The notes under the pieces were generated by a model. That model did no database searches and had not been told where the DNA came from. It saw nothing but the letters and a program-made list of their open reading frames with translations. From Candidatus Latescibacterota bacterium (GTDB taxonomy: Bacteria; Latescibacterota; UBA2968), in contig OZ241986.1 of the NCBI GenBank assembly GCA_965204375.1, positions 5,216,001 to 5,280,000 on the forward strand: a stretch of DNA of 64,000 bases, given 5' to 3'. Positions 8,629 through 63,969 of the stretch are shown piece after piece. The number at the start of each line of letters is the position of its first letter. Within the stretch, counting starts at the first letter, position 1. Made by a program: the position numbers and the translations under genes.

Positions 8629-8630
8629 TT

Positions 8631-10489: not shown

Positions 10490-10925
10490 TTGATAGACTC
10501 CTTTGGTAGTTGTATTCAGCGATTAAATGTTGGATAAATTCCTTCGCCAAAAGATAGGCATACCGATCAATTTCTGCACTCACTTGCCGCTTTTGAGCAC
10601 GTCCCATTTCTTTGGGTTTTACGACAAGTTGAGTCTCCTCAACCTGTTTGGGCAGTCCGTTGAGGTAATCTTTCAGGTTTTGGTAAAATTTCTTCAATTC
10701 ATCGGGGGTTGTATTCCTATTGAGTCGATTATCAATGTAGCGGAAAATTTCACCCTGATCGCTTGCGCCGACAGCGTTCCAAAGACCGCTCAATTGGGAA
10801 TTTGAGATTTTTGAGTGGGCATGCTTTGCGACAAGATCAACGGCATCACAATAGAGTTTCCCATCACTCAACAGACGGATCTGTTGCGCCTGTCCAATTG
10901 TCACTGCCATCTCATTTACCTCCAA
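10482..10925 (-). CDS. Putative small subunit (Cas11/Csm2-like)
   Basis: ~147 aa, all-helical character, SQLSGL motif, C-terminal EFIQHLIAEYNY; overlaps both neighbours in the operon. Confidence 0.65.
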   Translation of the reverse strand: MEVNEMAVTIGQAQQIRLLSDGKLYCDAVDLVAKHAHSKISNSQLSGLWNAVGASDQGEIFRYIDNRLNRNTTPDELKKFYQNLKDYLNGLPKQVEETQLVVKPKEMGRAQKRQVSAEIDRYAYLLAKEFIQHLIAEYNYQRSLSNA

Positions 10926-11340
10926 CTGTCACTTGATATTCGTAATGCACGACCAATTGACTCACAAATGCACGGATGAGGCTCAGATAGATGCGCTGTC
11001 CTTCAGATGTGTTTTCCTCGACACTTTCGAGTTTTCCACAAATCTCTCGTCGTCGGACGCGAAGACTTTGTTCAATATAGTCCTTCAAGCGCTCGCCAAA
11101 GTTATTCTTTCTCCAAGTTTGGTGCCTGTCATCCTTTGCAACCTGTTTCTTGATGTAATCAAGTACATCCGTTACCTTGAGCGTGGAATTTGCAATATTT
11201 TCGAGGTTTGTCATCTGGCTTCGGTGACGAGATTCAAATGCCTGTGAAGCGGCGTCTCCAAGTTCCTTTGCCCGATTATAAAAATCATCGCGATCAGTGA
11301 CCTGAGCAATTTCTTTAAGGATTTTCATTTGTTGGTTCAT
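10912..11340 (-). CDS. Putative small subunit (Cas11/Csm2-like)
   Basis: SQMTNLENIA, YIKKQ..K...W, C-terminal AFVSQLVVHYEY; resembles the adjacent gene. Confidence 0.7.
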   Translation of the reverse strand: MNQQMKILKEIAQVTDRDDFYNRAKELGDAASQAFESRHRSQMTNLENIANSTLKVTDVLDYIKKQVAKDDRHQTWRKNNFGERLKDYIEQSLRVRRREICGKLESVEENTSEGQRIYLSLIRAFVSQLVVHYEYQVTVGGK

Positions 11341-12584
11341 AATTCGTTGACCTCCCTATGAAAGGCATCGGCAATCATAACTTGCCCAAAACCTTCTGAC
11401 CGGCGTTTGCCTATGCCCTTCTGTTCAATGTCGTAGAGTTTCTGATAAAAACGTTCATCAGGTGTTCCGTTATATCCAAACAGAAAAACAGAACCCATTG
11501 AAATCGCCCACTCTGCCGCTTTAGGCAATCCCAAAAGGGCGTTCCAGCCGATTACACGACGTTGGCCTGCGTTTTGGTAAATCAATGCTATATCCTCTAA
11601 ATCCCACATATCACGCAAGTAAGTCTGATCAAGAGCCATTTGATAACGCAACTGATGATCGAGAAGAATCGCATCAGATTGAAGCGTGATCGGAAAGTAG
11701 AATTCATGCGGCAAATCAACATCATATCTTTGCGCTTCAGTGTGAAACTTCTCACTAAATGCTCCAGCCCGCTTTTTTAAAGACTCCATAGCATCAGTCC
11801 TGAAAGCTTGGATTTGTGGAACGCCAAGTTTTCCCAATCCTCGCGTCAAGTTATTTCCTACTCTGAGTATCCCTTTATCCCCGACATCCTCTGCAAAATC
11901 GTAAAAATCATCATGTAGCGATTCATCAGCAAAGGATATAGTTCCCCAGAACGATTGTCCTTCATTAAGGACTTCACGATTATAGAGGATACCTTCTTGC
12001 ACGGTTCCTGTTTCTCGACTGATTCCCGTTCGGGTCAATAAACGAGTCTTTACTTCTGATTGACCAATTTCCGCAACATCCTCCCCACGACGGTAGAAGC
12101 CAGAAAACGTATCAAGCAACTCGCCACATCTTCCATGATTATCAGAGTAGGTGCAATTCTTATGTGGTTCGAGGATTTCAACCTTTATCTGCCCACTCAA
12201 TGCAAACAATCCCCAATAGATGAGGCTATCCATGACTCCGTGACGCTCTTTATCGCGTTCATTCGCCTTAAAACGGAAACCGCTGAATCGTTTACAAGAG
12301 CGAGCGGTCTTCGGTATCGGTTTTATTGGTTGCTCATTGTCTTGCAGATCAGTGTCTGAAAAATCATTAAAGTTTGCCGGATAGAGATTGCCAAAATGGA
12401 TCTCTCCAGAGAGGAAAAACTTTGCAAATTCATCTTTATCATCACGAGCTTTGCGATGCGCCGCCGCAAACGCCCCTAACAATGCGGTACCGGGAATGTA
12501 TTTGAGTGTATTAAAGCTTGCCGTTGAACGAGACACACGAAAGTTCAGCGGAGATTCCGATGAAACGATCAGTCTTGCTTTCAT
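11337..12584 (-). CDS. csx10: Csx10 (Cas5 group RAMP)
   Basis: YIPGTALLGA, FGNLYP, RTGISRETGT, VGNNLTRGLG, GWN...LPK, GIGKRRSEGFG. Confidence 0.9.
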   Translation of the reverse strand: MKARLIVSSESPLNFRVSRSTASFNTLKYIPGTALLGAFAAAHRKARDDKDEFAKFFLSGEIHFGNLYPANFNDFSDTDLQDNEQPIKPIPKTARSCKRFSGFRFKANERDKERHGVMDSLIYWGLFALSGQIKVEILEPHKNCTYSDNHGRCGELLDTFSGFYRRGEDVAEIGQSEVKTRLLTRTGISRETGTVQEGILYNREVLNEGQSFWGTISFADESLHDDFYDFAEDVGDKGILRVGNNLTRGLGKLGVPQIQAFRTDAMESLKKRAGAFSEKFHTEAQRYDVDLPHEFYFPITLQSDAILLDHQLRYQMALDQTYLRDMWDLEDIALIYQNAGQRRVIGWNALLGLPKAAEWAISMGSVFLFGYNGTPDERFYQKLYDIEQKGIGKRRSEGFGQVMIADAFHREVNEL

Positions 12585-13315
12585 TCCGCATCCTCCTGTG
12601 CCATTTCATAGTATTCCAATTCACCCAGACTTTCCAATAACTTTGCAACTTCAATTGTTTTATCATTGATTGTCATTTTTTGTATTTTGCAATCATATTT
12701 GCCCATTCCCGTTGATTTGTTTGCGCCGATTCGGTCATTGGTACAAATGCCTGCAACCAATAACAGCAGCGAATAGCTCCATTCATTTTCGTCGATATGC
12801 AATCCTTCGAGATAGCCGTAAATTCGCCCTTCAAAGCAGAGTGTCTTGATGCCAAATTCGCTTTGGAATAGGGCTTGTTCACGCACAGTACCCAGAACTC
12901 GAGATATACTCGTTTGTGAGCGCTCCTCTGTCTGGAGGTGGATGTATCTCTTTGACTTTTGAGAATTATCAAAGAGATCTTGATCTTCTTTAGTCATTGT
13001 TGCATTGTCGAAATAGAGTTCGCCCGGTTTGTAGCGAGAGCCGAAGATTCTATCAACAATGTCGATAGTATTGCAGAAATCCGAAACCGCTTCTTGCTCA
13101 TCATGTGGACTGACAGCCCGGAGGCCAACCAGACGAGCGATCTGTTCACACCTCTCGCGCAATACACCTTTCAGCGTTGAGCCAGGAATATAGAGATGAT
13201 CGTGCGCATCTCTACTGACACTGCGGTCTAATAAATTTCGACGCAATCCAGTCCCAAAGTGGAAGGGCGTTTCAAACTGGATATAGTAATCAATGCTAAT
13301 AAAGTCTCGTCGCAT
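12581..13315 (-). CDS. csm3: Cas7-group RAMP (Csm3-like)
   Basis: FHFGTG, YIPGSTLKGVLRE, RIFGS, IGANKSTGMG. Confidence 0.88.
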   Translation of the reverse strand: MRRDFISIDYYIQFETPFHFGTGLRRNLLDRSVSRDAHDHLYIPGSTLKGVLRERCEQIARLVGLRAVSPHDEQEAVSDFCNTIDIVDRIFGSRYKPGELYFDNATMTKEDQDLFDNSQKSKRYIHLQTEERSQTSISRVLGTVREQALFQSEFGIKTLCFEGRIYGYLEGLHIDENEWSYSLLLLVAGICTNDRIGANKSTGMGKYDCKIQKMTINDKTIEVAKLLESLGELEYYEMAQEDAE

Positions 13316-13332
13316 AAAAATTTACCTCACTC

Positions 13333-14868
13333 TTATTCGATAAAATCGTAAAGTTCAATGAGGTCCAAAAATGGGGTATAATAATCGTCACCCTCCTTGA
13401 ACCAAGGAAAACTGGGAATTTGCTGATTGGTAGTGAAATAGGTGGGAAAGTCCATAAATTTCTTCTTTCCTTTTTCTTCCTGGATGTGTCTCAGGAACGC
13501 CAAGCCTTCTAAAAGCGATAGATTTCGACTTTGAAAAATCGCATCTTGAAGTCCTTTTAGTTTTCCGCGTGGGAAATTTTCTCCTTTCAAGTAGCGAATA
13601 TTCTCAACGATATATCGCAGATCTGTCAAGCTATAGGGACGCAGTGTTCGATAGAGACTTTGGTCTTCATTGCTAAGCGTCTCGCTGTAGTAGGCGTCAA
13701 AATCGAGACTATTGGAATTACTCTCTACGATAAAGTTGATCAGACCTTCCTTTGCCTCCTCTTGTCCGCGTCTTTTGCGTTTCGTAGCTTCCATTTTCGC
13801 AAATTTCAACGCCTGTTCAGCCAACGTCAGTAAACTCGAAAATGGAAATGTTGTATGTGCGATAGCCACGCCAACTGATAATTTTAAAGGTCTGCCCAGG
13901 TCTGTGCTGGTGAGTTCGCTGAATTTTTCGGCGATTTGTATGGAAACTTCAATAGCTTTGTGTGCCGTTGTGACCATCACCAAATCATCGCCCCCAAGTA
14001 TCAGAATGTCGAATGGAAAATACTTTTCCTTGTCAGACGGTAGATATTCACAAATCGCCTCTCGCACCGCCTGATAGATAGCATCATCAACCATCTGAGA
14101 AAACTGTTTGACTTCGTCCAAATTGCTCAACTGATCCAGTTCCCTGCCCATACTATCCCCATCTGCATAGATGAGTCCCATGTAGTTCGTGGGCTTAGAC
14201 ATTTCGCCCAAATTATTAAAATCTTCGGGGCGGGTTTTACCTGCTATCTGATAACCTGCCCCTTTTAAGTCATATAGCAAGCGAGGCCAGAGTTTGTATT
14301 CCACATCTTCTTTGCTGTTCCCACTGATAAAGTCTTCAATATCTGCTCTAATTTCGTTATTCTTATCTCGTTTATTTTTGCAACTTCCGCAAAGCAATTC
14401 AAATTCAGGCTCTGTAACGCTTTGGTTTGCGTACTGTTCACCACAAGAATCGCAAGTTCTCAAAAATGGATGCGTCACAAGCGGTTGATTCAAGGTCTTT
14501 CCATCCTTTTTTAGACGGAGTCGATAGCCAAGTGTTCGAAGGTAAGGTTTAATATCATCTTGATTTGTGAAGTTATCAGGTAGGTCTGTTACAGCACTTG
14601 TGATAGACCCTGTGCGTGTCTTCAAATGATATTCCTGTTCTACGGCCTGAATCAGTGCCTCTGCGGAAGTTTCAGGTACAGTAAACATCCCAGAGCCACC
14701 ATTTGCGTAAATTTTCTTTGCATTGAAGTTCTGGCTCTTTTCGACCATATCCCGACGGTTCAATTCATCCAGAATCGCGCTTGCTCCTCGAATTTCTTTG
14801 AGCTTGTTAGTTGCGAAAATATATTCTTTGATACGGTCTGTATCAAACGAGACTAACTTTTGTCCCAT
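13333..14868 (-). CDS. cas10: Cas10, type III-D, without HD domain; Palm2 cyclase motif intact
   Basis: Starts directly at Palm1 (DTDRIKEYIF..NKLKEIRGAS), CxxC/CxxC zinc finger, YADGDSMG, LGGDDLV. Confidence 0.95.
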   Translation of the reverse strand: MGQKLVSFDTDRIKEYIFATNKLKEIRGASAILDELNRRDMVEKSQNFNAKKIYANGGSGMFTVPETSAEALIQAVEQEYHLKTRTGSITSAVTDLPDNFTNQDDIKPYLRTLGYRLRLKKDGKTLNQPLVTHPFLRTCDSCGEQYANQSVTEPEFELLCGSCKNKRDKNNEIRADIEDFISGNSKEDVEYKLWPRLLYDLKGAGYQIAGKTRPEDFNNLGEMSKPTNYMGLIYADGDSMGRELDQLSNLDEVKQFSQMVDDAIYQAVREAICEYLPSDKEKYFPFDILILGGDDLVMVTTAHKAIEVSIQIAEKFSELTSTDLGRPLKLSVGVAIAHTTFPFSSLLTLAEQALKFAKMEATKRKRRGQEEAKEGLINFIVESNSNSLDFDAYYSETLSNEDQSLYRTLRPYSLTDLRYIVENIRYLKGENFPRGKLKGLQDAIFQSRNLSLLEGLAFLRHIQEEKGKKKFMDFPTYFTTNQQIPSFPWFKEGDDYYTPFLDLIELYDFIE

Positions 14869-14964
14869 AAAAATTCTCCTTTCAAATTGAACCGTATTGT
14901 CCCCATGTATAGATTTCTTTTTTTTATGTCGTTCTTATGACCGCAGAATATTACTCCATCCTCA

Positions 14965-15893
14965 GAAGCTGTTTTAAAACCCTGGCGTTTAAGCAAGTCT
15001 GTTAATTAAGAGATAAATCATACCGATGTGAATAAAGGCTTCACTGTTGTCCGTTAAGCGTTCATAATCCTTTGACAGTCGGCGGAAATTGAATAACCAA
15101 GCAAAGGTGCGTTCAATGACCCAACGGCGTTTGACTATTTGAAAGCCTTCCCCTTTTGGGGTAACGACCTCAAGATCAATCTTATGTGTTTGTTTTCTAT
15201 CAGCGACCCATTCCTTGAGGTCTTCGCCGCGATATCCGCCATCAACCCACAGCTTGCGTAAGCGTGTCACGCCTGTTTCAAAATACTGATTGAGCACCTT
15301 TTTGAGGCCATCACGATCTTGGAGATTAGCCGGTGAGACATAGGTGCTGATGACCAGTCCGAGGGTATCGACAAGCAGATGGCGTTTTCGTCCATTGATC
15401 TTCTTTCCCGCATCGTAACCCTTTGAGTCTGCTTGTGTTGCTGTCTTAACACTTTGGCTGTCAATACAGCCTGCTGATGCGTCAGGCTTGCGCCCTTGCC
15501 GTTTGCGCTCCCTACGTGAGAGTGCTTGTTGCACCTGCTGAAAGATGTCTTGCTCGCGCCATTTGTTGAAATAGCCATACACGGTTTGCCAACAGCCAAA
15601 GGTATGAGGCAGCATGCGCCATTGGCAGCCCGTCTTCGTCAGATACAGGATGCCATCAAACACGCGTCGCAAATTGGCAGGTGGACGTCCGGGACCTCCT
15701 TTTTGCCATTTGCGTTTGGGCAACAAGGGGATCAGCAGTTGCCATTGCGCTTGGGTGACATTTGTCGGATATTGTCTTGGCGTATTCATCGCATGTCCTT
15801 TCTTTTTAAGGTTTTTGGATACCCTAAATTTGGACTGATGAATACGCTTTTTCAACTCTTTTTTTTATTTCTCCATAATTTTAAAACAGCTTC
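14965..15893 (-). mobile_element. IS5-family (IS1031-like) insertion sequence
   Basis: 15-bp perfect terminal inverted repeats GAAGCTGTTTTAAAA (14965-14979 / 15879-15893); 3-bp TCA target duplication (14962-14964 / 15894-15896). Confidence 0.93.
14989..15789 (-). CDS. IS5-family DDE transposase
   Basis: TGCQWRMLP, IDSQSVK, GRKRHLLVD, VDGGY, KRRWVIERTFAWL. Confidence 0.95.
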   Translation of the reverse strand: MNTPRQYPTNVTQAQWQLLIPLLPKRKWQKGGPGRPPANLRRVFDGILYLTKTGCQWRMLPHTFGCWQTVYGYFNKWREQDIFQQVQQALSRRERKRQGRKPDASAGCIDSQSVKTATQADSKGYDAGKKINGRKRHLLVDTLGLVISTYVSPANLQDRDGLKKVLNQYFETGVTRLRKLWVDGGYRGEDLKEWVADRKQTHKIDLEVVTPKGEGFQIVKRRWVIERTFAWLFNFRRLSKDYERLTDNSEAFIHIGMIYLLINRLA

Positions 15894-15946
15894 TCATGAA
15901 AATAGAGCACCAGAGTAAGCGGTCTATCTCTTTCTCCCTTCACACG

Positions 15947-16297
15947 TCAATCTCCAAACCACTCGGCTACTTTTTCTTTTGCATGGGCTTTAATCTCCGG
16001 CGTTACATGAGCCGCTACGGTTGCGAGAGCTGCGACCAGCACACCCAGATCATCGCCGTAGCCGACGGCGGGGGTCACGTCGGGAATCGCGTCAACTGGG
16101 AAGATGAAGTATCCCAGTGCCCCTTTGATGACTGTTTTGGCCCAGAGTGGCGTATCAGGAGCCTGCGCGGTGTAGTAGAGTGATAGGGCATTCTCTACGA
16201 CTTTCCGTCCCGCAGGGCTGGCGAAGTTGAGCAGTTTTTTCCAGAAGCTGTCCTGAGAGTAATATTTCCCATACCCCTGCTTGTTTCGATTGTTCAT
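15947..16297 (-). CDS. YkvA/DUF1232 family small membrane protein
   Basis: TPLWAK..I.GALGYFIFPVDAIPD.TP.VGYGDD signature; GGAGG RBS. Confidence 0.9.
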   Translation of the reverse strand: MNNRNKQGYGKYYSQDSFWKKLLNFASPAGRKVVENALSLYYTAQAPDTPLWAKTVIKGALGYFIFPVDAIPDVTPAVGYGDDLGVLVAALATVAAHVTPEIKAHAKEKVAEWFGD

Positions 16298-16360
16298 GTC
16301 TTTCCTCCATTCGGTTTTACTGCGGATTTAAAAAACTTTTTTGCGCTCACCTCTTATTTA

Positions 16361-16376
16361 TGCAATCCGCGTGCCA
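16361..16376 (-). promoter_or_regulatory. sigma54 -24/-12 promoter upstream of the DUF1232 gene and cas10 operon
   Basis: Minus strand reads TGGCACGCGGATTGCA, matching TGGCACG-N4-TTGC(A/T). Confidence 0.9.
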
Positions 16377-16474
16377 AAATGGAAGAAAATTTAAATTTAT
16401 TTTTTAATTTATATAAAAACAATATGTTATAAGAATCTTTTTATTTTTCAAACATGACGCTAATCTGTTCAAGC

Positions 16475-16509
16475 GTGCAATTCTGCACGTTTGCCGTGCA
16501 ATTTTGCAC
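16475..16509. promoter_or_regulatory. Paired palindromic upstream activator sites
   Basis: GTGCAATTCTGCAC (16475-16488) and GTGCAATTTTGCAC (16496-16509), 21 bp apart, ~100-130 bp upstream of the sigma54 promoter. Confidence 0.75.
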
Positions 16510-16535
16510 TTATTCGACTATATGCTGCTCTTCTT

Positions 16536-17492
16536 TCACACTTCATCCTTCACACTTCTTCCTTTTATAGCGTATTGTCCCATCCCAAAGCTGGTCCACT
16601 TGCCCACATGCATTGGTACGCCCAGTGCCAGTAGTGGGTGGAATTGTGTCATGTCGCCTTCAAAGACGACATTTCCTGTGAAACCGCTCACGTTCATGCG
16701 TCGGTTCTTGCGGTTTGAATATCGCTCCCATGTGCGCCAGGTCAAGTTGTGGGATGTGGTTTGAACATTCTCTGCCGTTGAGATATAATCGGCATAATCC
16801 AAATCTGGCGGTCCATCTGCGTGAAATGCGGCCAATGCTGAATACCGCCGCAACAGTCCGCGTATGAGCACGGGGAAATCCAATCCGCGCTGCAATATCC
16901 GGTCTGCTTTGAGTTGTGTGGGGGTTACAAATGAGAGGCGAATCCGGGATCCGATTTTGTTGTGCATTAAATCGCTCGCTGCCAGATGTGGCACATCTTG
17001 TAACATCTCGCTCGTCCCGTCGTACACCGTCTGCCATGTTCCATCCGGGTGCAGAGCTTCGCCTGAAATGAGATCGCATTTGCCGCGTCCGCGTCCAATA
17101 CCTGTGTCTCCCATTCGCTGGAAGGTGTAGATGAAATAGGGCATGTAATTCAGTGCTCGGCCAATGAGGGTCAGACCAATCGCAAACTCGTCGTCCGGTG
17201 CGTAATCGGTTTTGGTTTCCAATGGCGGTTCGATCAAATAGGGATGGGGTGCCTCGCTGTACCCGCGAAAAATGCCTTGTGCATTCTCCACTGGCGTGTC
17301 AAATATGTATGGATACACGCATTGCGTCCGAACGAGACATCGCTCGCACTCGCCGTGTTGCACAATACAAACCGCACGCTTAAATGACACGCCAAAAGCC
17401 CCGCGAAATGTGGAGCCTTTATAGGGTGGCAGGCGCAGATTATCTCGTGCTTTGAAGTGCAGGCGCATATATGCGAATTCGAGTGTAAACAT
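16536..17492 (-). CDS. cas6: Cas6 pre-crRNA endoribonuclease
   Basis: YKGSTFRGAFG, CxxC..C, PHPYLIEPP, F.TP, HVGKWTSFGMGQY G-loop. Confidence 0.95.
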   Translation of the reverse strand: MFTLEFAYMRLHFKARDNLRLPPYKGSTFRGAFGVSFKRAVCIVQHGECERCLVRTQCVYPYIFDTPVENAQGIFRGYSEAPHPYLIEPPLETKTDYAPDDEFAIGLTLIGRALNYMPYFIYTFQRMGDTGIGRGRGKCDLISGEALHPDGTWQTVYDGTSEMLQDVPHLAASDLMHNKIGSRIRLSFVTPTQLKADRILQRGLDFPVLIRGLLRRYSALAAFHADGPPDLDYADYISTAENVQTTSHNLTWRTWERYSNRKNRRMNVSGFTGNVVFEGDMTQFHPLLALGVPMHVGKWTSFGMGQYAIKGRSVKDEV

Positions 17493-17629
17493 CCATATCT
17501 CCTTTGTATGATGGAACTATAAAACTCTAAGCCATCACGCACAGCGCGCTATTCCGTCAACCGCTGTCCTCCTTGTTTGCATTCAACTTTGAAGGCCACT
17601 ACATATCGTCTATCCACCTGAGCAATTTG

Positions 17630-17715
17630 CGCTGTGCCAGCCCCTCGGCGTTTGAGAGCGGCATTTTTTGCCTACTTTTTTTTGCTGGAGAAAAAAAGTA
17701 GGTCGCCGAAGGCAT
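17630..17715. repeat. REP-like palindromic element in the cas6 5' region
   Basis: Hairpin CCTACTTTTTTT-TGCTGGAG-AAAAAAAGTAGG with GC-rich flanks. Confidence 0.5.
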
Positions 17716-17793
17716 AAAAAGAAAAATCTTAAAAAAAGCTTAATACGTCGTTGTACCACAACACAAGAATTATGTGCACTCCTCAATTGTATA

Positions 17794-17809
17794 TGCAATC
17801 TGCGTGCCA
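17794..17809 (-). promoter_or_regulatory. sigma54 -24/-12 promoter upstream of cas6
   Basis: Minus strand reads TGGCACGCAGATTGCA; 15/16 identical to the site at 16361-16376. Confidence 0.9.
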
Positions 17810-17908
17810 AACACAAAAAAATCTCCGATTTTTCCTCAGAGATCAAAAAAACAACGGGTTGTATGATATTTTTTTGAAACAGGAAATGGACAACAGTTAT
17901 GTTTAGCC

Positions 17909-18011
17909 GTGCAAATATACACACGTTTGTTATAAGAAAAAATTAAAAATAACTGCTATACCAACATATCGGGCCAATGTGCATTTTTGCACACCAGATG
18001 CAATTCTGCAC
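17909..18011. promoter_or_regulatory. Palindromic upstream activator sites for the second sigma54 promoter
   Basis: GTGCATTTTTGCAC (17979-17992), ATGCAATTCTGCAC (17998-18011), degenerate GTGCAAATATACAC (17909-17922). Confidence 0.7.
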
Positions 18012-18059
18012 GCCTTTCAATTCATATATTTGGGATTTTCGGTCCCTTTTCTCTGCAAA

Positions 18060-19736
18060 TCAAGTCAAGCCATATTCTTTGGCTCTTCTACTCAGCGTTG
18101 ACCGATCCATACGTAGCATCTTCGCGGCGTGTGCAATAACTCCCTGCGTTTGCTCCAGCGCGTCTTGAATGATCTTTTTCTCAAATTGCGCTACCTGCTC
18201 GTCGAACGAACCCTGAAAAATATCCGTATCCTCTTGATCAAATAACACATCGGGCGTAATCCATTGATCTTCTGGTGTCACAATAGCTGCCCGTTCAATA
18301 GCATTCTTTAACCCTCGGATATTGCGGGGCCAATCATAAGCCTGCAACGCACGCATAGCGTCCTCTGTAAAACCCGCAAATTCCTTTCCTTCATTCTCAG
18401 AAAAACTTTTCAAAAAGTGATGGGCAAGCAATGGAATATCTTCTCGTCTTTCCTTGAGTGGTGGCAACTCAATTTTTAAAGAAAAACGGCTTAGCAGATC
18501 GCCTCGAAACGCGCTTTCCTCTGTATTCAGGTTTTCATTGGTCGCGGCAATAAGGCGCACATTCACCGATATATCTGTCTCGCTGCCCATCCGTCGTATC
18601 ACACCGTCTTCCATGACTCGTAACAACATGCCCTGCACATCGGGTCGAAGCGAATTGATTTCATCGAGAAAGAGCGTGCCATTATTTGCTTGTTCAAACA
18701 AACCCTGACGCTGCTTGTTTGCGTTCGTAAATGCTCCCTTTTCATGACCAAACAATTGACTTTCCGCCAGATCTCCTAATCTCGCACAGTTTTCTGGGCG
18801 ATATTTTCCTGTTCGATCACTCGCTTTGTGCAGTGCAGAAGCAACCAGTTCTTTGCCAGATCCGGTGGAGCCTGTGATCAATACTGAATGACTATAAGGC
18901 GCATATAGTTTAATGTCCTTCTTAACATCCTGAATGCTGTCACTCTGACCAATAATTTCTGGAAACGCATCTTCTGCGCCCGATGCAATCCGCTCTATAT
19001 ACTGTTCTTGCATCTGCTTTGCGTAATCATTGACTGCCTGCTGTGTCAATCTCAGGGTGTCTTCAGTATATTGCCCGGGGGCTACAAATTGCACCACATC
19101 GCGCAATCGACAAAATGGCACGTCAGCCAATTCGATGCTCACAGTATCGCTCATGACTTTCTGGCCCCTGACGATTAGAGATTCCTCCTGTCCTGTACTG
19201 CGATTAAATACCATAATCGGTTCAGGCTTCTCTGGTGGATAATAATAGGACGCATCGCTTCGTTCAATCTCGGGCACGGAAACCAGAACGTGATAAAGCC
19301 GGTCTTGTGGCCGACCAAAAAAGTGAATGGCTGCCCCCAGTATAAAGCCCATAGATTTTCTTCCACCGGCAAGCGAGCAGTGCAATGCCACTTGATCATC
19401 CTGCGTCAGTGTCTCTATCAATTCAAAAATGCCGTCTCGCGCAATGCGATTCTCGTCAGAGGTGCGGATATCGTCTAAAAAGTTGCCCTTGGCGTCTTCG
19501 AATACGTGTATCTGATCGGTGTCGAAAACAGGCTTGGGATCGATATTGTAATCCGACAGCATCTTTTCAAAGCGGCCCTCGTCTAATAGGCGTTTCTGGC
19601 AGATTTCTTTGCCTACGGTTGTCGTTATCACAAATACTTCATTGATGGGCACCTTGCGCTGGACACGCAATGCCCAGAAGGTTTCTGTCATAACTTGTGG
19701 TGTGTTGCCGACTACAGCGACCAATTTGTGTTGCAT
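18060..19736 (-). CDS. CARF (NE0113/Csm6-type) - sigma54-interacting AAA+ ATPase - Fis-type HTH transcriptional activator
   Basis: CARF: VVGNTPQVMTET, LDDIRT, LHCSLAGGRKSM, GRPQDRLYHVLV, YYYP, LADVPFCRL. AAA+: GSTGSGKE, ESQLFGHEKGAFTNA, GTLFLDEI, RLIAATN, FRGDLLSRF, WPRNIRGL. HTH: AAKMLRMDRSTL. Confidence 0.93.
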   Translation of the reverse strand: MQHKLVAVVGNTPQVMTETFWALRVQRKVPINEVFVITTTVGKEICQKRLLDEGRFEKMLSDYNIDPKPVFDTDQIHVFEDAKGNFLDDIRTSDENRIARDGIFELIETLTQDDQVALHCSLAGGRKSMGFILGAAIHFFGRPQDRLYHVLVSVPEIERSDASYYYPPEKPEPIMVFNRSTGQEESLIVRGQKVMSDTVSIELADVPFCRLRDVVQFVAPGQYTEDTLRLTQQAVNDYAKQMQEQYIERIASGAEDAFPEIIGQSDSIQDVKKDIKLYAPYSHSVLITGSTGSGKELVASALHKASDRTGKYRPENCARLGDLAESQLFGHEKGAFTNANKQRQGLFEQANNGTLFLDEINSLRPDVQGMLLRVMEDGVIRRMGSETDISVNVRLIAATNENLNTEESAFRGDLLSRFSLKIELPPLKERREDIPLLAHHFLKSFSENEGKEFAGFTEDAMRALQAYDWPRNIRGLKNAIERAAIVTPEDQWITPDVLFDQEDTDIFQGSFDEQVAQFEKKIIQDALEQTQGVIAHAAKMLRMDRSTLSRRAKEYGLT

Positions 19737-19761
19737 ATCGTTATCCTCTTGAGACATCTCA

Positions 19762-19801
19762 TTGACTTGTATAGTATAACACAGTAATTTTGAAATATCA
19801 A
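19762..19801. promoter_or_regulatory. Overlapping divergent sigma70-type promoters, copy 1
   Basis: Minus strand TTGATA-N17-TATACT; plus strand TTGACT-N17-TAATTT. Confidence 0.75.
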
Positions 19802-19839
19802 TCTATGACTGTTTGAAATACGTACCAGTGGAGAGGACA

Positions 19840-20025
19840 ATGGAAACGACGCTTGATTTGTCAGGATTGCCCAAAAATCTCGTTGCGGTTTGGAAAGCGC
19901 GGGGTGAGCATAGCGATGGACTACAGCCCATTATCAAGCGGAAGGTGGCGCCGTCGGAATTTATATTGAAGGATTCGGATGTTGTTGGCGGTGAAGTGAC
20001 TCGAGCAATGGCGTATGATGAATAA
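19840..20025 (+). CDS. Small antitoxin-like hypothetical protein
   Basis: GAGGA RBS, 61 aa, C-terminal TRAMAYDE resembles VapB-type tails; no toxin ORF follows. Confidence 0.45.
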   Translation: METTLDLSGLPKNLVAVWKARGEHSDGLQPIIKRKVAPSEFILKDSDVVGGEVTRAMAYDE

Positions 20026-20145
20026 TTCCTGAATTCTCAAAGAACAAGAGTCGCTGTTTTATATAATCTGCAGATGGGGCTAATCGGGTTTGCACTCTAT
20101 TTGACAGGTCATCGATGGGATCCTTCTTACCTGAGGATGATACGA

Positions 20146-22704
20146 TCAACGACCCTTCGGCGCCGGAAACATCTCATAGACTTGTTGTATAAGCCTATCT
20201 TTCAGGTCTTGGACCTGAACCGCATTCTGATAAACAAGAAATGCGCACACCAACTCCCGCCTCCGATCAATTCGAAAATGCGCCCCCCACGCGCCGCCGT
20301 GAAAAACGAGATCGGCCAAGCCGGACTCTGAAACGTCGCCCCGGAACCATCCCAATCCGTAGGTCCTCCGAGGTCTGTCAGGTGACTGTAGTCGCCGCAT
20401 CTCGCTTATGGATGCCCTGGAAAGGATTCGCTTTCCGTCAAACACGCCGTCGTTCAGGTGCATCTGACCGAACACCGCCAGCTCGTCCAACGTGGTAAAC
20501 AGCGATCCCCCCGACAGGATGAAGCGGAAATCCTCGATCTCCGCCATGGAACGTTGTCTCTGTAGTTTCCCTTTTTGTCTCAGATACCCCGTGGGCACCG
20601 TCTTTCGCGCTTCGATAGAGGGCAAAAAGGTCGTGTTATTCAGACCCAGGGGGCGAAACAAAGCATCCTGCGCAATCTCCTCGAGCGACTGGCCAAGAGC
20701 GACTTCAGCGACACGACCCAACACGCAATATCCAGTGCCGGAATAGATCCATTTCGTTCCCGGCTCATAGACGAGATCGTACTCTGCAATGCCATTGACC
20801 GCTTCGGCCAGCGGGCGTTCGAAGTTGCGGATGAGATCCATCTTCTCGGGCGTGATTCCCTGGTTCCCCCAAAAGCCTGCGGTGTGCGAGAGCAGGTGGC
20901 GAATCGTCATCGGTCGTGCTGGCGTCTGATTGCCCTCAACCTTTTTCCCTTTGAACTCCGACAGGTATTTCTCCACCGGATCGTCCAGGTTCACCTTCCC
21001 CTGTTCAACCAGGGCCATTACCACGCTTGCCATAAAGGGTTTGGAGACAGATGCGATCGGAAGCAATTCGTCCGTAGTGAATGGTCGCTTCGCTTCGATA
21101 TCGGCATATCCGAACGCCTCTCGAAAGACGATTTCTCCTTTGTGGGCGACAAGAAAGGAGCCCCCCGCAATCTGGTCCTGCTGCACAGCCTGACGCATAA
21201 TTTCGGCCAGCGATGCGATCTGATTTTGCGTCACGCCATGCGACTGTAGATCCGTCTGAATAAACCGATCGAATAGATTCGCCGTCATACGCTGCACGCG
21301 CGCGTCAGGGCCTTGCGGCCGGGCGAATCTATTTGCGGGCAAAACGTGGCCTGGAGGCGATGACACACCTTGCACATACCAGATGGATGCCGCATTGAAT
21401 ACAACGTTGTCCTTAGGCCCATTGTAGATCGTCGCTACATGGGATGAATCAGGCCTATTTTTCCCGTCAACCGCATTGCTTGTGGCCAGGATTTCATGAC
21501 CGGGCAAATCGCGGGCAGGATAACCGTTCCATTCCCAGCCCACCAGGCCATTGATGGCGTCGCCTTCTTTCATATCGGTGCCTTCATACAGCCAGTGATC
21601 GGGCCTGGTGCAGATAAAGTTACCGCCGCCGATGCCCGCGTGGCGTCCACCCATGAGCAGCGCCCCGTCCGGCCCCATTGGATACTTGAGTTTTCGTTCC
21701 GGATACCGCTTGGCGTAGGCATCGCCGACGAAGTAGCCTTCGCGTCGCATAATACGGTGAGGCTGTCCTTCAGCGGAGGGCAGCAAAGGCACCACACCCA
21801 ACACCGTGTTACCACTCAGGAATGCAAGGTTCACACCGGCGTCGCGGGCCACACCGGCACTGTCGAACATCTCCCGCGTCCAATACTCGTCATGGCCCAC
21901 GGAAATGAAACCTTTCGCGCGTTGCAATCCCGTCCCGTCCGTATGCGTATCTACGTTCGATATGTACGACACATCGTAACCCTGCTGCTCCATCCAATAG
22001 GACAGGGGATATTCCCAAAGAAGAAATTCGCCCGAACCCACAGAATTAGGTCTATCGACAAGATGATTCTGGCAGAAATTGGCGTACGGACGATCAAAAC
22101 TCACCCACCCGGTTTCGTTCGGATCGGTGCTCCACTTCTTTCTTCCATTGGGATTGTAAACTTCCTTGTCGTTATGGTAGAGAGACCACCTGTCATCGGG
22201 CCAACTGTTGTAGGCTTGCCAGGTCATGTCGCTACACTGGAAAAGCAGGTCACAGGGCCGGTCGTCACGCACGATGAAGATGATGTAGCTTTGCAGGCCC
22301 TCCTTCTTGGCGGTGAGTTTGCCGAGATAGACACCGCTCAACCAATCGCTGGGAATCTCAAATTCAACCGACGGTTCCCATTTGCATTCACGCAAGCGGT
22401 TTTCACCGATAGGCGGATCGGGTTGGATCTTGCCCTGAATGGATTCAAATTTCATCATGGAGCGCCCGCCGTCACCACCATAATAACCCACGCGGAAAAT
22501 TTCCAACTCGAACTCCGACACTGGATTCGTGCTCACCATGATCTTGAGCGTATCGCCAGCACTCACACTCGTCTCAGAGCAGTAACCCTCGATCCCGGGA
22601 GAACGCCACCATGTATCTGGGTCGATGTAAGTCTTAGCAAGTAACCAGTCGCGCGTTCCGGGTTTTTCGTTTTCTTGCCGGATCAGGCTATTCGATTCGT
22701 TCAT
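20146..22704 (-). CDS. DMFase beta-subunit-like (DUF6605) domain fused to a beta-lactamase-family serine hydrolase
   Basis: IEGYCS..SV, TWQAYN.W, VSFDRPY, SVGHDEYWT, GLVGWEW; C-terminal half has SVSK (SxxK), LLSHTAG, YSG, YGLGW, HGG. Confidence 0.85.
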   Translation of the reverse strand: MNESNSLIRQENEKPGTRDWLLAKTYIDPDTWWRSPGIEGYCSETSVSAGDTLKIMVSTNPVSEFELEIFRVGYYGGDGGRSMMKFESIQGKIQPDPPIGENRLRECKWEPSVEFEIPSDWLSGVYLGKLTAKKEGLQSYIIFIVRDDRPCDLLFQCSDMTWQAYNSWPDDRWSLYHNDKEVYNPNGRKKWSTDPNETGWVSFDRPYANFCQNHLVDRPNSVGSGEFLLWEYPLSYWMEQQGYDVSYISNVDTHTDGTGLQRAKGFISVGHDEYWTREMFDSAGVARDAGVNLAFLSGNTVLGVVPLLPSAEGQPHRIMRREGYFVGDAYAKRYPERKLKYPMGPDGALLMGGRHAGIGGGNFICTRPDHWLYEGTDMKEGDAINGLVGWEWNGYPARDLPGHEILATSNAVDGKNRPDSSHVATIYNGPKDNVVFNAASIWYVQGVSSPPGHVLPANRFARPQGPDARVQRMTANLFDRFIQTDLQSHGVTQNQIASLAEIMRQAVQQDQIAGGSFLVAHKGEIVFREAFGYADIEAKRPFTTDELLPIASVSKPFMASVVMALVEQGKVNLDDPVEKYLSEFKGKKVEGNQTPARPMTIRHLLSHTAGFWGNQGITPEKMDLIRNFERPLAEAVNGIAEYDLVYEPGTKWIYSGTGYCVLGRVAEVALGQSLEEIAQDALFRPLGLNNTTFLPSIEARKTVPTGYLRQKGKLQRQRSMAEIEDFRFILSGGSLFTTLDELAVFGQMHLNDGVFDGKRILSRASISEMRRLQSPDRPRRTYGLGWFRGDVSESGLADLVFHGGAWGAHFRIDRRRELVCAFLVYQNAVQVQDLKDRLIQQVYEMFPAPKGR

Positions 22705-22769
22705 GCTGTTTTCTCCGTGCATCACTTTATTTGTCTGCGCCGTTCTACTTTTATACGATCAACGATCAT

Positions 22770-24008
22770 TTACTCAAGATGATCGCCAATGCCGTTCTTG
22801 TTTTTATCTGTAACGCCGGAGAGGGGATGCTCCACCACCGCTTTCCAGACGATTTCGCGGAAAATTTCGTCAAGGTCGGCGCTTAGGAAACTCGGATTCC
22901 TATTGAACTTGATAGGCGCTGAAATGAGTTCGGGGGATTTGCCGTAGAGCGTGGCGTAGAAGACATAGCCCTCCAGGCGGTCGAAGCCGGGCCCCAAGTG
23001 GCCGCGTTGGTCTGCCCAGATAGAACTTTCTTTTCCGCCAATGACCTTATACAGGCCTTCTACGCCGGGAAGCTCTCCTCGAATGAAGCGTTTGGCCGCC
23101 TCCGTCATGGCGGCGCGCGTCGGCAAGATGTAGACTTCATCGGTTGATTCGCGCAGCGTTTTCACGAAGTCCGCAAAGCCAGTGTTCACAGGGGCGTTGA
23201 GCTGATCGAAGACCGCATCGGTGAAGAACGCTTCAGACTCCGGGTTTCCTTTCCGACTGAAGACTCTCTGGACCTGAGATAGCGTGGGCCAGCCGTCGAT
23301 GAGAAAAAACTTCATGCCGGGATTGTATTGTTCGCAGAAATCGATCCAGCATGTGTAAAATTCTGGACGATCACCGACGTAGGGTCCCCAGATCATCGCC
23401 TCCCATTCCGCGTTGGAAATAGCAGACAGCAGTTTGGGCAGGGGCTTGCCGTCGAATTGGAAGATGCCATTTTCCTGCTCCCATTTGTAGCGAACGCTGC
23501 CCCTTTCCCCGCCGCCGTTATGCAGGCAAAAGGGCTGCTCGAACCCGGCGGCACGGGTGATGGCGGGTAAGGTTCTGTAGCCGGGCGCAGTGAAGCTGTG
23601 GCCCGTGCCCACGATGCGCATGATGCCGTCGGCAGGCTTGGGAAAGGAAAGGGCGTCGCTCGCATCCACATAACTTCGACCCGCAGGGCCGCGCTTATAA
23701 ATTGCCATAATCTCATCAGGCGTCTTAAAGCTTACCGCGTGTGGCGGGAATTCATCCTTCTCCCAGCCGGGATGAAATCTCCCCTTCCATTGCGCTGCTG
23801 CGGCCTCAGCTTGCTCCTTGTGCGCGCGGGCGGCCTTGATCTCCTCTGCGGTCAGCTTGCCATCGCCATCCGCATCCGCGCCAGGATGTTGCCTGAGGAA
23901 TCGAGACAGTTCTTCTTCGGAGAACTGTTGCGCTTGCGCATTCGAGAAGGGTGCGGCCGCCACCAGGGCGAGGATCACTAAGAGTAGGATTGGGCGTTGT
24001 TTGTTCAT
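22770..24008 (-). CDS. Secreted hypothetical protein with an EF-hand-like motif and a possible SGNH-like domain
   Basis: Signal peptide, DADGDGKLTAEE, VGTGHSF, D..GH. Confidence 0.7.
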   Translation of the reverse strand: MNKQRPILLLVILALVAAAPFSNAQAQQFSEEELSRFLRQHPGADADGDGKLTAEEIKAARAHKEQAEAAAAQWKGRFHPGWEKDEFPPHAVSFKTPDEIMAIYKRGPAGRSYVDASDALSFPKPADGIMRIVGTGHSFTAPGYRTLPAITRAAGFEQPFCLHNGGGERGSVRYKWEQENGIFQFDGKPLPKLLSAISNAEWEAMIWGPYVGDRPEFYTCWIDFCEQYNPGMKFFLIDGWPTLSQVQRVFSRKGNPESEAFFTDAVFDQLNAPVNTGFADFVKTLRESTDEVYILPTRAAMTEAAKRFIRGELPGVEGLYKVIGGKESSIWADQRGHLGPGFDRLEGYVFYATLYGKSPELISAPIKFNRNPSFLSADLDEIFREIVWKAVVEHPLSGVTDKNKNGIGDHLE

Positions 24009-24202
24009 GGTTCCTCCTTATTAACTGATATTTCCCACATACAACCGCTCGCGCCTATCGCGAACAGGTTTCAATTATATTATCGACGTTTCCCTGCGTG
24101 CGAACCATCAAGGTGCCTTTCCATGTCCCGGAGAATCACCATCTTGGCGTTCGGTATGGCCTCCTGGGTATCCCACTGGGCCTTGAGCACCACATCTCCT
24201 TT

Positions 24203-25795
24203 TTATTCAAATGATGGAGATTCCTTGACGAACCAATCAAACACATTTTTTGTCATACGTTGAACGCGCGGGTCCGGACCTTTCGGCTTGGCATGCCTAT
24301 GTGCGGGCAATATGTGGCCGGGAGGCGCCGACAAACCTTGCGCCCACCAGATCGTCCCGGCGTTGAAGACGACATTATTCTTTGGCCCATCGTAGATCGT
24401 AGCGGCATGAGGACTGTACCTGCGATTCTTCGGTAGCATCGGTCCCTCGGCCAGAACTTCAAAGTTAGGCAGTTCGAGAGCAGGCGATCCATGCCATTCC
24501 CAGCCCACCAGGCCTTTGATCGTGTCGCCTTCTTTCATGCCCGTGCCTTCATACAGCCAGTGATCGGCATTGGCGCAGGTCCAATCGCCTCCGCCAACCC
24601 CGGCGGTGCGTCCCCCCATGAGTAGCCTCGCGTCCGGTCCCGCTGGATACTTGGCGGGGGTGCCGCGTCGCTTGTTCAACATCTTGCTGAGTTCCTCGCC
24701 AAGGAACTTATCTTCGCGTCGCATGATCCGGTGGAGCTGCCCTTCGGCAGAGGGCAGCAAAGGCACCACACCCCAAACCGAATTACCACTCAGGAACGCA
24801 AGGTTGACACCGGCGTCCCGAGCCTCGATGACGTTGTCGTACATCTCTCGGGTCCAATACTCGTCATGGCCCACGGAGATAAAGCCTTTCGCGCGTTGTA
24901 GTCTCGGACCGTGCCTGTGCGTATCCACATTTGAGATATACGACACATCGTACCCCTGCTGCTCTATCCAGTAGGACAGCGGAAATTCCCAAAGAAGAAA
25001 TTCGCCCGTGCCCACGGACTTGGGATTCATGACAAGATGATCCTGGCAGAACTGCGCGTAGGGACGGTCAAAACTCACCCACCCGGTATCGTTCGCGTTG
25101 GTGCTCCACTTTTTTCTTTTCTTGTATCCCGTGTAGCCATTTTTGTCGTTGTGGTAAAGAGACCACTCGTTGGTAGGCCAACTGTTGTAGGCTTGCCAGG
25201 TCATGTCGCTGCACTGGAAGAGCAAATCGCAGGGGCGATCATCGCGCACAATAAAGATGACGTAGCTTTGTACGCCGCCCTCCTTGGCAGTGAGTTTGCC
25301 GAGATAGACACCACTCAGCCAATCGTCGGGAATCTCAAATTCTACGGAAGGTTCCCAGGTGCATTCGCGCAGACGGTTCTCGCCTATCGACGGATCGGCT
25401 TGGGTTTTACCCGGCAGCGAATCGAAACGCTTCATGGACCGCCCGCCGGTGCCGCCGTAGTAACCCGTGCGGAAGATTTCCAGACTGAACTCCGAAACCG
25501 GATTCGTGCTCACCATGACCTTGATCATGTCGCCAGCGCTCACGCTCGTCTCGGAGCAGTAGCCCTCGATTCGCGGGCTACGCCACAACGCCACCGGCTC
25601 GTTGGCAGTGATGTCGGTCTTAGTGAGCAACCAGTCCCGCGTTCCACGCTCGGCGTTTTCGAGTTCTATCATATTTTCCCCTACTGGCGTTTGGCCAAAG
25701 GCCTCAGGAATGCCAAGCGCGCCTGATGCCAGCCCAAGGCTTACTGCAGCGGCGCCTTTGAGTGCATCACGGCGATTCATGCTGGATTCGTTCAT
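24203..25795 (-). CDS. Tat-exported DMFase beta-like (DUF6605) protein
   Basis: NRRDALKG Tat motif and the same conserved motifs as its paralogues. Confidence 0.85.
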   Translation of the reverse strand: MNESSMNRRDALKGAAAVSLGLASGALGIPEAFGQTPVGENMIELENAERGTRDWLLTKTDITANEPVALWRSPRIEGYCSETSVSAGDMIKVMVSTNPVSEFSLEIFRTGYYGGTGGRSMKRFDSLPGKTQADPSIGENRLRECTWEPSVEFEIPDDWLSGVYLGKLTAKEGGVQSYVIFIVRDDRPCDLLFQCSDMTWQAYNSWPTNEWSLYHNDKNGYTGYKKRKKWSTNANDTGWVSFDRPYAQFCQDHLVMNPKSVGTGEFLLWEFPLSYWIEQQGYDVSYISNVDTHRHGPRLQRAKGFISVGHDEYWTREMYDNVIEARDAGVNLAFLSGNSVWGVVPLLPSAEGQLHRIMRREDKFLGEELSKMLNKRRGTPAKYPAGPDARLLMGGRTAGVGGGDWTCANADHWLYEGTGMKEGDTIKGLVGWEWHGSPALELPNFEVLAEGPMLPKNRRYSPHAATIYDGPKNNVVFNAGTIWWAQGLSAPPGHILPAHRHAKPKGPDPRVQRMTKNVFDWFVKESPSFE

Positions 25796-25859
25796 GCTGT
25801 TTTCTTTGTTCATTCTGGCGCTCCTCTGGATATTGGACACAGATAGCCTTGTTTCTACC

Positions 25860-26025
25860 ATGGGAACCCTTCGGTCGGCGTCGCCGTGGAAGATCCAAAT
25901 GGGGATGTGCTTGATCTTTGGGGCTTCTTCAGGCGCCCATGCTGAGGCGATGGGAATGGCCGCTGCAAAGGTGTTCGGGCGGGAGACAATGGCGCCGAAG
26001 GTTCCGAGGCCGCCCATAGATTCGA
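25860..26025 (-). pseudogene. Fragment of an alpha/beta-hydrolase (esterase/peptidase)
   Basis: SMGGLGTF...FAAAIPI...IPIWIFHGDAD..VP, with no N- or C-terminus. Confidence 0.7.
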
Positions 26026-26030
26026 TGGAC

Positions 26031-27476: not shown

Positions 27477-27496
27477 TCTAGATTTCCCCTTTATTT

Positions 27497-29083: not shown

Positions 29084-29110
29084 ATTGTCTCCTTTTCCCA
29101 TTGTTGGACC

Positions 29111-62683: not shown

Positions 62684-63969
<1,286 letters not shown>

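Follow-up and report, generated by a model that had tools for sequence, protein, structure and literature searches.

A candidate cyclic oligoadenylate-responsive sigma-54 switch at a type III CRISPR locus of Candidatus Latescibacterota

How is a type III CRISPR-Cas locus switched on, and could the alarm nucleotide made by its own Cas10 be the signal? To our knowledge, little is known about the control of type III CRISPR-Cas expression, and the links from cyclic oligoadenylate (cOA) to transcription that we know of are Csa3 and CalpL/CalpS. The question is raised by a 64-kb stretch of a 6.34-Mb Candidatus Latescibacterota genome (contig OZ241986.1); the whole stretch is called the window here, positions are counted from its first letter, and the predicted features were read from its sequence. 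A gene that fuses a CARF domain to a sigma-54 activator lies there on the minus strand together with cas6, a DUF1232 gene, an IS5 element, cas10, effector genes and further CARF genes, all in the same orientation. We are confident that this locus is a sigma-54/activator switch for type III CRISPR, and the best explanation of the whole is probably a self-contained, cOA-gated sigma-54 switch that controls the type III locus.

The activator is encoded by a 565-aa open reading frame (ORF) at 18060–19757 (minus strand), identified by Pfam, NCBIfam and its translation. Its start is probably M8 at 19736, giving 558 rather than 565 aa, since an AGAGGA ribosome-binding site and the sequence conservation begin there; the ribosome-binding site is itself conserved, the database entry has 558 aa, and the homologues begin at MQHKL. 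A preliminary description of this DNA had claimed a CRISPR-type CARF joined to a complete enhancer-binding protein, and the Pfam and NCBIfam searches find every part of it. Residues 19–222 match Cas_NE0113 (PF09623; E 4.2e-34, 118.6 bits against a cut-off of 23), the protein matches TIGR02584 cas_NE0113 in NCBIfam (174.4 bits against a cut-off of 80.65), residues 268–426 match Sigma54_activat (PF00158; E 1.6e-51) with AAA_lid_14 matched as well, and residues 522–562 match HTH_8 (E 4.1e-13). The CARF, AAA+ and Fis-type helix-turn-helix (HTH) domains thus lie at about 19092–19703, 18480–18956 and 18072–18194, and the translation shows Walker A GSTGSGKE, Walker B LFLDEI and the loop GAFTNA. The RtcR equivalog NF038308 covers only residues 229–536, the AAA+ part (249.4 bits against a cut-off of 650), and no RtcR-domain match was found in the activator by Pfam at E ≤ 0.01. 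The sigma-70-type promoter that had been proposed for the gene is also present as TTGATA-17-TATACT, with TG before the -10, at 19801→19773 (minus strand); it is a consensus match only, scoring 10/12, the joint best score in the scanned region 13000–20200.

Two sigma-54 promoters lie downstream of the activator gene, and both are exact, as previously claimed. P1, TGGCACGCAGATTGCA (17794–17809, minus strand), faces cas6 and has a predicted start near 17783, placed by the usual -12 spacing; P2, TGGCACGCGGATTGCA (16361–16376, minus strand), faces DUF1232 and the effector operon, with a predicted start near 16350. The preliminary description was right about the first gene past each box and wrong in setting DUF1232 next to cas10, as the IS5 element lies between them. 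Promoters of this class are silent by default. P1 and P2 are the only zero-mismatch boxes in the window, the third match listed having one mismatch; the shuffle mean of 2.41 covers matches with up to one mismatch and is hence non-discriminating. The exact box, TGGCAC-N5-TTGCA, occurs 39 times in the genome, and two copies within 1.4 kb, on the same strand and each in a pre-gene gap, are far from that genomic base rate. Around the P2 boxes, TTTGGCACG..GATTGC is invariant in 8/8 aligned sequences.

Upstream of each promoter are the paired GTGCA-N4-TGCAC palindromes that had been described there, three of them exact (at 16475, 16496 and 17979) and two with one mismatch (at 17909 and 17998), at about 113–203 bp from the boxes. 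P1 has a distal, enhancer-like pair, GTGCATTTTTGCAC and ATGCAATTCTGCAC (17979–18011), at offsets of -184 and -203 from the GG that are identical in the related loci L003, L005 and L006, and a proximal enhancer-like site, GTGCAAATATACAC (17909–17922, one mismatch), about 114 bp upstream of the GG, where the aligned column block is conserved in the P1 alignment. The pair of P2, GTGCAATTCTGCAC and GTGCAATTTTGCAC (16475–16509), is exact, with centres 21 bp apart, and its offsets of -113 and -134 recur in L003, L005, L010, L011 and L012. The window holds 7 matches to the palindrome against 1.9 expected; exact copies number eight genome-wide; three belong to this locus, and nowhere else do two stand within 40 bp of each other. 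Co-variation of the HTH with the sites across loci is hinted at, without a clear-cut pattern: L010 and L012 combine CTGCA sites with another type of HTH, the sites of L007 and L009 read GGCA...TGCC, and L011, which shares its HTH type with L007 and L009, keeps GTGCA sites.

The IHF-like AAAACAA-N4-TTR elements noted earlier were found as well, as conserved A/T-rich elements that lie between palindromes and box, 39 bp from the box at P1 and 40 bp at P2. The P1 element reads AAAACAA-CGGG-TTG (17848–17861) and is an invariant block in 8/8 sequences; that of P2 reads AAAACAA-TATG-TTA (16416–16429), with AAC..T.TTG.TTT invariant in 8/8 sequences. Abutting the P1 -24 element is a terminator-like hairpin with a U-tract (17844→17820, minus strand; -10.4 kcal/mol, z -2.44), in the position where a terminator would have to be to keep the activator transcript out of cas6. 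The hairpin is invariant in the P1 alignment (-11.2 kcal/mol in L002 and -10.6 kcal/mol in L007), and it is convincing only where cas6 follows the activator, being weak in L012 (-7.4 kcal/mol) and unsupported in L004, L008 and L010. Rfam gave no RNA family in 14800–20200. The sigma factor on which such a circuit depends is encoded in the genome: rpoN is intact, with 500 aa and all three domains (activator-interacting, AID; core-binding, CBD; DNA-binding, DBD). Sigma-54 is moreover in use in this genome, as judged from 18 other sigma-54 activators and the 39 exact boxes.

The arrangement recurs in related loci. A CARF-domain match was found in 22 of 168 Latescibacterota genomes scanned, and in the reference genomes the fusion occurs in Candidatus Latescibacterota (L002–L012 and a partial L014) and in one Bacteroidetes bin (L013); one more diverged fusion, L080, with an activator 56% identical, comes from a metagenome. 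Of 23 CARF loci looked at for a downstream box, 12 are full-length fusions with downstream flank, the others being L176 and L183 (which stop at contig ends), stand-alone genes and 30-codon remnants. This survey of homologues, which the preliminary description had proposed, found TGGCAC-N5-TTGC in 12/12, at 150–340 bp past the stop codon and on the same strand, a count over relatives that are not independent of one another. The stricter TTGCW form is kept in 9 of the 11 non-window loci, and L008 and L012 read TTGCG. The two activator subfamilies are only about 47–55% identical in protein, and the intergenic DNA has a mean column identity of 69% in one alignment and 50% in the other; against this divergence, all 8 sequences of each alignment agree without exception at the -24/-12 boxes, the palindromes and the A/T-rich element. 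(The P2 alignment omits L002, where the gap between cas6 and DUF1232 is about 40 bp and there is no separate P2.) L080 is GC-rich and its sequence is otherwise unlike the window; it has palindromes at -116, -187 and -208, the box GGCAC-N5-(A)TGC, and in the same place a different, much stronger hairpin (-24.3 kcal/mol, z -7.3).

Within its family the fusion is a rare offshoot of a large group of CARF proteins. A CARF profile search gave 3787 representative clusters, and among the best 150 of these, 148 have at most 454 aa and are mostly stand-alone proteins of about 370–400 aa; the two longer ones are P0082 (562 aa), the one known activator fusion among them, and P0234 (537 aa, CARF at 173–375). 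By our own count, PF09623 and PF00158 occur together in 107 of 120 relatives listed at 90% clustering. Matches of the L070 type, which run to residue 340, were considered as a second kind of fusion and rejected, as these are NE0113 proteins with an unrelated C-terminal extension.

Synteny was compared in L002–L014, 13 of the 78 reference loci, the remaining loci being stand-alone CARF genes. The order is activator, cas6, DUF1232 and then a type III module; cas6 is upstream of the activator in five loci (L004, L008, L010, L012 and L014), and DUF1232 follows the activator directly in L004, L010 and L012. The activator, cas6 and DUF1232 products are 69–92% identical between loci, whereas the downstream Cas10 proteins are only 22–27% identical. 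Cas6 itself is 88–92% identical in L002, L003, L005, L006, L007, L009 and L011, and the DUF1232 protein 69–87% identical in nine loci. By NCBIfam the modules are III-D-like in the window, L002 and L005, III-B in L009 (Cmr2, Cmr3) and III-A in L007 and L012 (Csm1, Csm5), and that of L003 is a variant in which a cold-shock domain is fused to a RAMP protein and Csx10 is also part of a fusion; L011 is like L009 by its ORF pattern, and L004 and L010 resemble L003 by ORF pattern and tblastn matches, with no family search. That the regulator keeps company with type III systems whatever their subtype would best be accounted for by a signal that each of these systems produces; the joining of the activator cassette to III-A, III-B and III-D modules alike fits a signal common to all Cas10 enzymes.

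The genes that P1 and P2 face are those of a type III-D locus on the minus strand. Cas6 (16536–17492) matches Pfam CRISPR_Cas6 (E 2.8e-19). The first gene past P2 encodes a small DUF1232 (YkvA-like) protein (15947–16297; Pfam, E 2.2e-12), and P2 faces it together with an 11-gene type III-D operon. Cas10 (13333–14868) is a short form of 511 aa, a length class shared with L002 and L005; it matches Cas10-Cmr2_palm2 (E 1.6e-21) and its translation reads ILGGDDLV, with GGDD present. Pfam and NCBIfam profile searches gave no HD domain match in this Cas10, and a Cas10 with GGDD and no HD match implies that the locus depends on signalling. Past it, csx7, csx10, two small genes, a second csx7, a RAMP gene, a 184-aa gene and another RAMP gene (7109–13315) are tightly packed or overlapping; Csx7 reaches 143.4 bits against a cut-off of 108, and Csx10, with 167.6 bits, falls just under its cut-off of 177.3. 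Two further CARF genes of 523 and 380 aa follow (4266–7050), one NE0113-like and the other matching Cas_APE2256 (a Csx1-type CARF). The 523-aa protein (5479–7050) has NE0113-like CARF regions at about 1–180 and 342–522 and no recognised effector domain. A CRISPR array with a 37-nt repeat occupies 39–3966, and by the rule of the 8-nt handle we take it to run in the direction of the cas genes, since the reverse complement of the repeat ends in ATTGAAAC.

Put together, these parts suggest the following circuit. The activator gene would be transcribed from its own sigma-70-like promoter, and the hairpin abutting P1 would stop this transcript at least partly. The Fis-type HTH would bind the GTGCA-N4-TGCAC sites, and a DNA-bending protein at the A/T-rich element would bring the activator to RNA polymerase-sigma-54, closed at P1 and P2. 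The NE0113/Crn1-like CARF would keep the AAA+ ring inactive until a nucleotide signal binds, the likeliest being a cOA from a Cas10 that has met target RNA, and ATP hydrolysis would then open both promoters. P1 would raise Cas6 and hence CRISPR RNA (crRNA) maturation, and P2 would raise DUF1232, Cas10, the effector and the CARF accessory genes. The initial alarm would in this way be amplified, the first cOA coming from basal read-through or from the genome's second type III system, and the Crn1-like CARF may also degrade its ligand and so reset the switch. Of the circuit that the preliminary description had drawn, the wiring (activator, sites, promoters) is strongly supported, also by the intact rpoN and by the conservation; we infer that the protein binds the palindromes, which ligand it senses, that this ligand activates it, and that the loop feeds back. 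A cOA ligand with positive feedback is the best-supported reading of these steps, and we consider it reasonably likely.

A number of points weigh against this reading and are given here and in the following paragraphs with the evidence that bears on them. The activator loop is GAFTNA instead of GAFTGA. Close relatives have GAFTGA, NAFTGA, NAFTNA or GAFTDA (G, N or D at position 5) and a sister group has GAYTGQ, GAYSGQ or GTYTGQ, in each case with the downstream promoters intact and with the F/Y-T core kept in all but one. Because loop sequences differ naturally among members of the family whose promoters are nonetheless perfect, GAFTNA is probably not a dead variant. Three HU/IHF-family (DNABII) genes are present in the genome, none of them above the IHF-alpha cut-off, so "IHF site" denotes a resemblance only. 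In L008 the promoter faces non-CRISPR genes, and this circuit may have decayed or been re-purposed; the post-fusion sigma-54 promoter there faces an FGE (formylglycine-generating enzyme)-sulfatase/PvdO-like gene and kinase genes (the region 11966–13075 of L008), with cas6 still upstream. In L013 there is no sigma-54 box with up to two mismatches after the fusion gene. That Bacteroidetes fusion is nevertheless beside RT-Cas1 (RT, reverse transcriptase), a Lon-like protease and a CARF-RelA/SpoT protein, a neighbourhood that speaks for cOA as the ligand: downstream of RT-Cas1, the activator adjoins an NE0113 CARF-RelA/SpoT nucleotide-pyrophosphokinase fusion and a Lon_C-like protease (8089–9519 and 7020–8192 of L013), and the CARF-RelA/SpoT protein is possibly a cOA-triggered alarmone synthetase.

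A sigma-54 operon whose own product makes the signal has no way to begin from nothing; since the silent operon itself encodes Cas10, start-up needs leaky read-through or a second source of cOA. A spark of the first kind is readable in the sequence: transcription from the activator's promoter could run past the terminator, which is a modest one. A candidate for the other source is a second type III system at 3.93 Mb (3924000–3943999, L165), with cas1, an archaeo-eukaryotic primase (AEP)-TPR protein, a group II intron-type reverse transcriptase, a Cas10 of 544 aa, large fused RAMP proteins, of which one has a cold-shock domain, and a CARF-adenosine deaminase of the Cad1 type; these 20 kb contain no exact sigma-54 box. 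In a bolder version, which we put forward tentatively and hold to be somewhat doubtful, the activator, cas6 and DUF1232 would be a portable ignition cassette that locks type III modules of any subtype and opens on an existing cOA alarm alone. This would be a two-tier, energy-dependent amplification of CRISPR immunity gated by a second messenger, with the alarm supplied by leaky basal complexes or by a second, constitutive type III system (here Cad1-linked).

What does the CARF sense? That the ligand is a cyclic oligoadenylate is suggested by the family to which the CARF is assigned, by a Cas10 with GGDD and no HD match, and by the pocket motifs: GxTPQ (T19, after strand 1) and GGRKSMG (R133, K134, after strand 4) show little or no variation across 28 fusions and 42 CARF domains, are conserved in fused and stand-alone members alike, and align with GTSP and GGRK of 7z55 and Sso2081. 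Of 39 stand-alone NE0113 loci that span 15 kb or more, 23 have cas10 within reach. Among solved sequences, the Cad1 CARF (E 0.0015) and the ring nuclease Crn1/Sso2081 (E 0.02) come nearest. Crn1/Sso2081 is described as a binder of cyclic tetra-adenylate, cA4 (PMC12409355), and Cad1 as binding cA4 and cyclic hexa-adenylate (cA6), with its CARF dimers arranged as a trimer on top of a hexamer (PMC11645235); an AAA+ hexamer could have the same geometry. The PDB matches to cOA-binding CARFs are weak (E 0.0015–0.06), and the alignment of the CARF profile with the N-terminus of the genome's own Cad1 (hhalign, probability 11.9%, E 0.0025) brings the motifs together and is unconvincing. RtcR, the one CARF-sigma-54 activator that has been studied, is moreover reported to be unresponsive to oligoadenylates, and its CARF to bind RtcA/RtcB (PMC9650030).

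These last points are the ground for the alternative that survives best, although we think it unlikely: the circuit is real, and the CARF senses something other than cOA, such as 2',3'-cyclic phosphate RNA ends (the signal proposed for RtcR), a phage-derived nucleotide or a protein partner, for example a Cas subunit. Such a signal would also remove the start-up problem. However, the CARF is of the NE0113/TIGR02584 type and not of the RtcR type, its pocket motifs are those of stand-alone, type III-associated NE0113 proteins, and the cassette is linked to III-A, III-B and III-D alike.

The conserved motifs admit another reading, in which cOA binding switches the activator off or the CARF is mainly a ring nuclease, and the circuit would serve as a brake or homeostat, not to amplify. 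Proteins of the Csx14/NE0113-like kind are classed with the Crn1 ring nucleases, and Csx14 is predicted to be one from its conserved Ser/Thr and Lys (PMC8284326, PMC12409355), which also counts in favour of a cOA ligand; the corresponding T19 and K134 are conserved in the activator CARF, and constitutive activity without a signal would solve the start-up problem. The terminator just before P1 and the sigma-54 promoters suggest, however, that the resting state is off, and N-terminal domains of this kind usually repress until a ligand binds, as described for RtcR (PMC9650030). We consider a brake distinctly unlikely.

Could the circuit, finally, be intact in relatives and broken here? Two insertions separate its parts. 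The first is a 934-bp IS5-family element (14961–15894, minus strand; transpos_IS5_3, 239.9 bits) in the 180-bp gap between DUF1232 and cas10, with its transposase co-oriented with the operon. Elsewhere in the genome there are four copies at 99.8–99.9% and one at 85%, and from the near-identical copies it appears to have been recently active. It is absent from a related strain, with raised depth and loose ends at 14959–14964 and 15894–15896, and, standing between P2/DUF1232 and cas10, it may be polar. The second, between P1 and cas6, is a repeat element of about 276 bp in the cas6 leader (17510–17785), present in the window and L006, missing in L002, L005 and L011, and lacking in the related strain, which has the joint 17509→17786; three diverged copies lie elsewhere in the genome (4348505–4348693, 5403030–5403223 and 5289049–5289305). 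This leader repeat is a low-copy element with an internal A/T-rich hairpin, and L003, L007 and L009 have a different insert at that place. On this evidence one could argue that the insertions uncouple the promoters from cas10 and cas6 and that the motifs are relics of a circuit decayed in this genome, and a truncated copy of the activator at 30768–30930 shows that the region has been rearranged. We hold decay to be improbable: both insertions look recent, all reading frames from the activator through csx1 are open despite them, the boxes and enhancer sites are exact, and read-through of the intergenic, co-oriented IS5 element is possible. Least credible of all, and close to refuted by the comparative data, is the reading that the boxes and palindromes arose by chance and do nothing in regulation: although consensus scans alone prove no function and shuffles do give matches when a mismatch is allowed, all 12 homologous loci keep the box in the same place and on the same strand, the invariant columns stand in diverged intergenic DNA, L080 keeps the geometry, and the whole genome has so few exact boxes and palindromes.

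Among the sequencing runs, all of them contigs and not raw reads, one filed as RNA has contigs of a relative about 85–95% similar that cover portions of the activator gene, cas6 and DUF1232; a contig of this set spans the P2 intergenic region, and portions without cover carry no meaning. DNA was possibly present in that run and the contigs show neither start, strand nor level, and they are no evidence for or against expression.

The truncated activator copy deserves a note of its own. It lies at 30768–30930 on the minus strand and consists of the activator 5' end, with the sigma-70-like promoter, the ribosome-binding site and the first 30 codons, 90% identical and then diverging. It is upstream of an 11-kb cluster (20146–30742) of DMFA2_C-like, sulfatase and beta-lactamase-fold genes, which separates it from the intact gene, and its promoter may now drive the inserted cluster. 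The same remnant occurs at 1300–1389 of L006 and in loci L185–L188, in several genomes of the genus. Elsewhere in the window there is a second CRISPR array with a different repeat, GTTTCAATCCACGCCCCCATGTAGGGAGCGAC (63013–64000), which runs past the window end and has its cas genes outside it. An AAA_5 (McrB-like) ATPase gene with an adjacent 368-aa gene (42688–45536, minus strand) and an Eco57I/N6-methylase-like gene (31025–32557, plus strand) are possibly defence genes. Perfect 10-bp tandem repeats lie between genes at 60721–60797 (ATCTGCGTTC, 7.7 copies) and at 50606–50632 (ATCTGCGTCC, 2.7 copies).

Comparison with known systems places the proposed cOA-gated sigma-54 switch among several relatives. 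RtcR has the same plan of an N-terminal CARF, a central sigma-54 AAA+ domain and a C-terminal HTH, and its CARF is proposed to restrain the ATPase as long as no signal is present (PMC4012209, PMC9650030). RtcR differs, however, in its RtcR-type CARF and its rtcBA targets; the CARF here is of the NE0113 type, and the genes downstream of the activator are cas6, DUF1232, IS5, cas10 and RAMP genes, not rtcB or rtcA, so that cas6 and a type III operon take the place of RNA repair targets. Csa3 is likewise a CARF transcription regulator, described as cA4-responsive and as tying type III signalling to cas/CRISPR expression with positive feedback (PMC8284326, PMC8699464, PMC8844856). Unlike the present activator it is a CARF-winged HTH protein with no ATPase that acts on ordinary promoters, mostly those of archaeal type I-A and adaptation genes, whereas the AAA+ domain and Fis-type HTH here would give an energy-dependent, all-or-none opening of sigma-54 promoters at type III genes. 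The activator would work like RtcR, as a CARF-gated sigma-54 activator, and like Csa3, as a cOA-responsive regulator of CRISPR genes, yet it is a member of neither. Stand-alone NE0113/Csx14/Crn1-like proteins have the same CARF family and motifs and are often beside cas10, and they have no AAA+ or HTH. In the CalpL-CalpT-CalpS system, cOA also acts on transcription, through a cA4-activated protease that frees a sigma factor (PMC11229360); this is anti-sigma proteolysis with a sigma factor of the extracytoplasmic function (ECF) type, not a ligand-gated enhancer-binding ATPase. In Myxococcus xanthus (MXAN7280), a sigma-54 promoter and the enhancer-binding protein Nla28 drive cas genes (PMC9765219), but Nla28 is a starvation-response regulator encoded elsewhere, with no CARF and no link to CRISPR signalling.

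As far as we have checked, the circuit is conserved and uncharacterised. In the parts of the 2014 CARF paper that we cite, NtrC-type ATPases are tied only to RtcR-like CARFs and NE0113 is given without an effector domain (PMC4012209), and the terms sigma-54, NtrC and RtcR were not found in the text of the 2025 CRISPR classification. We found no published NE0113 CARF-sigma-54 activator in a CRISPR locus in the searchable literature, where RtcR work and the 2014 CARF paper alone came up, a search that did not cover the Makarova 2020 CARF classification, which might list the architecture.

A stretch of 3.5 kb suffices to read the sensor, enhancer sites, insulating terminator, promoters and targets, all with conservation between species, and the hypothesis of a cOA-responsive sigma-54 switch is therefore directly testable. 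If it is true, a ligand-gated enhancer-binding protein joins the CARF effectors, and the way in which costly or toxic type III modules stay silent would be explained; synthetic biology would gain a cOA-responsive transcription switch that is tightly off by default. The same cassette on III-A, III-B and III-D modules is evidence of modular exchange between regulation and effectors.

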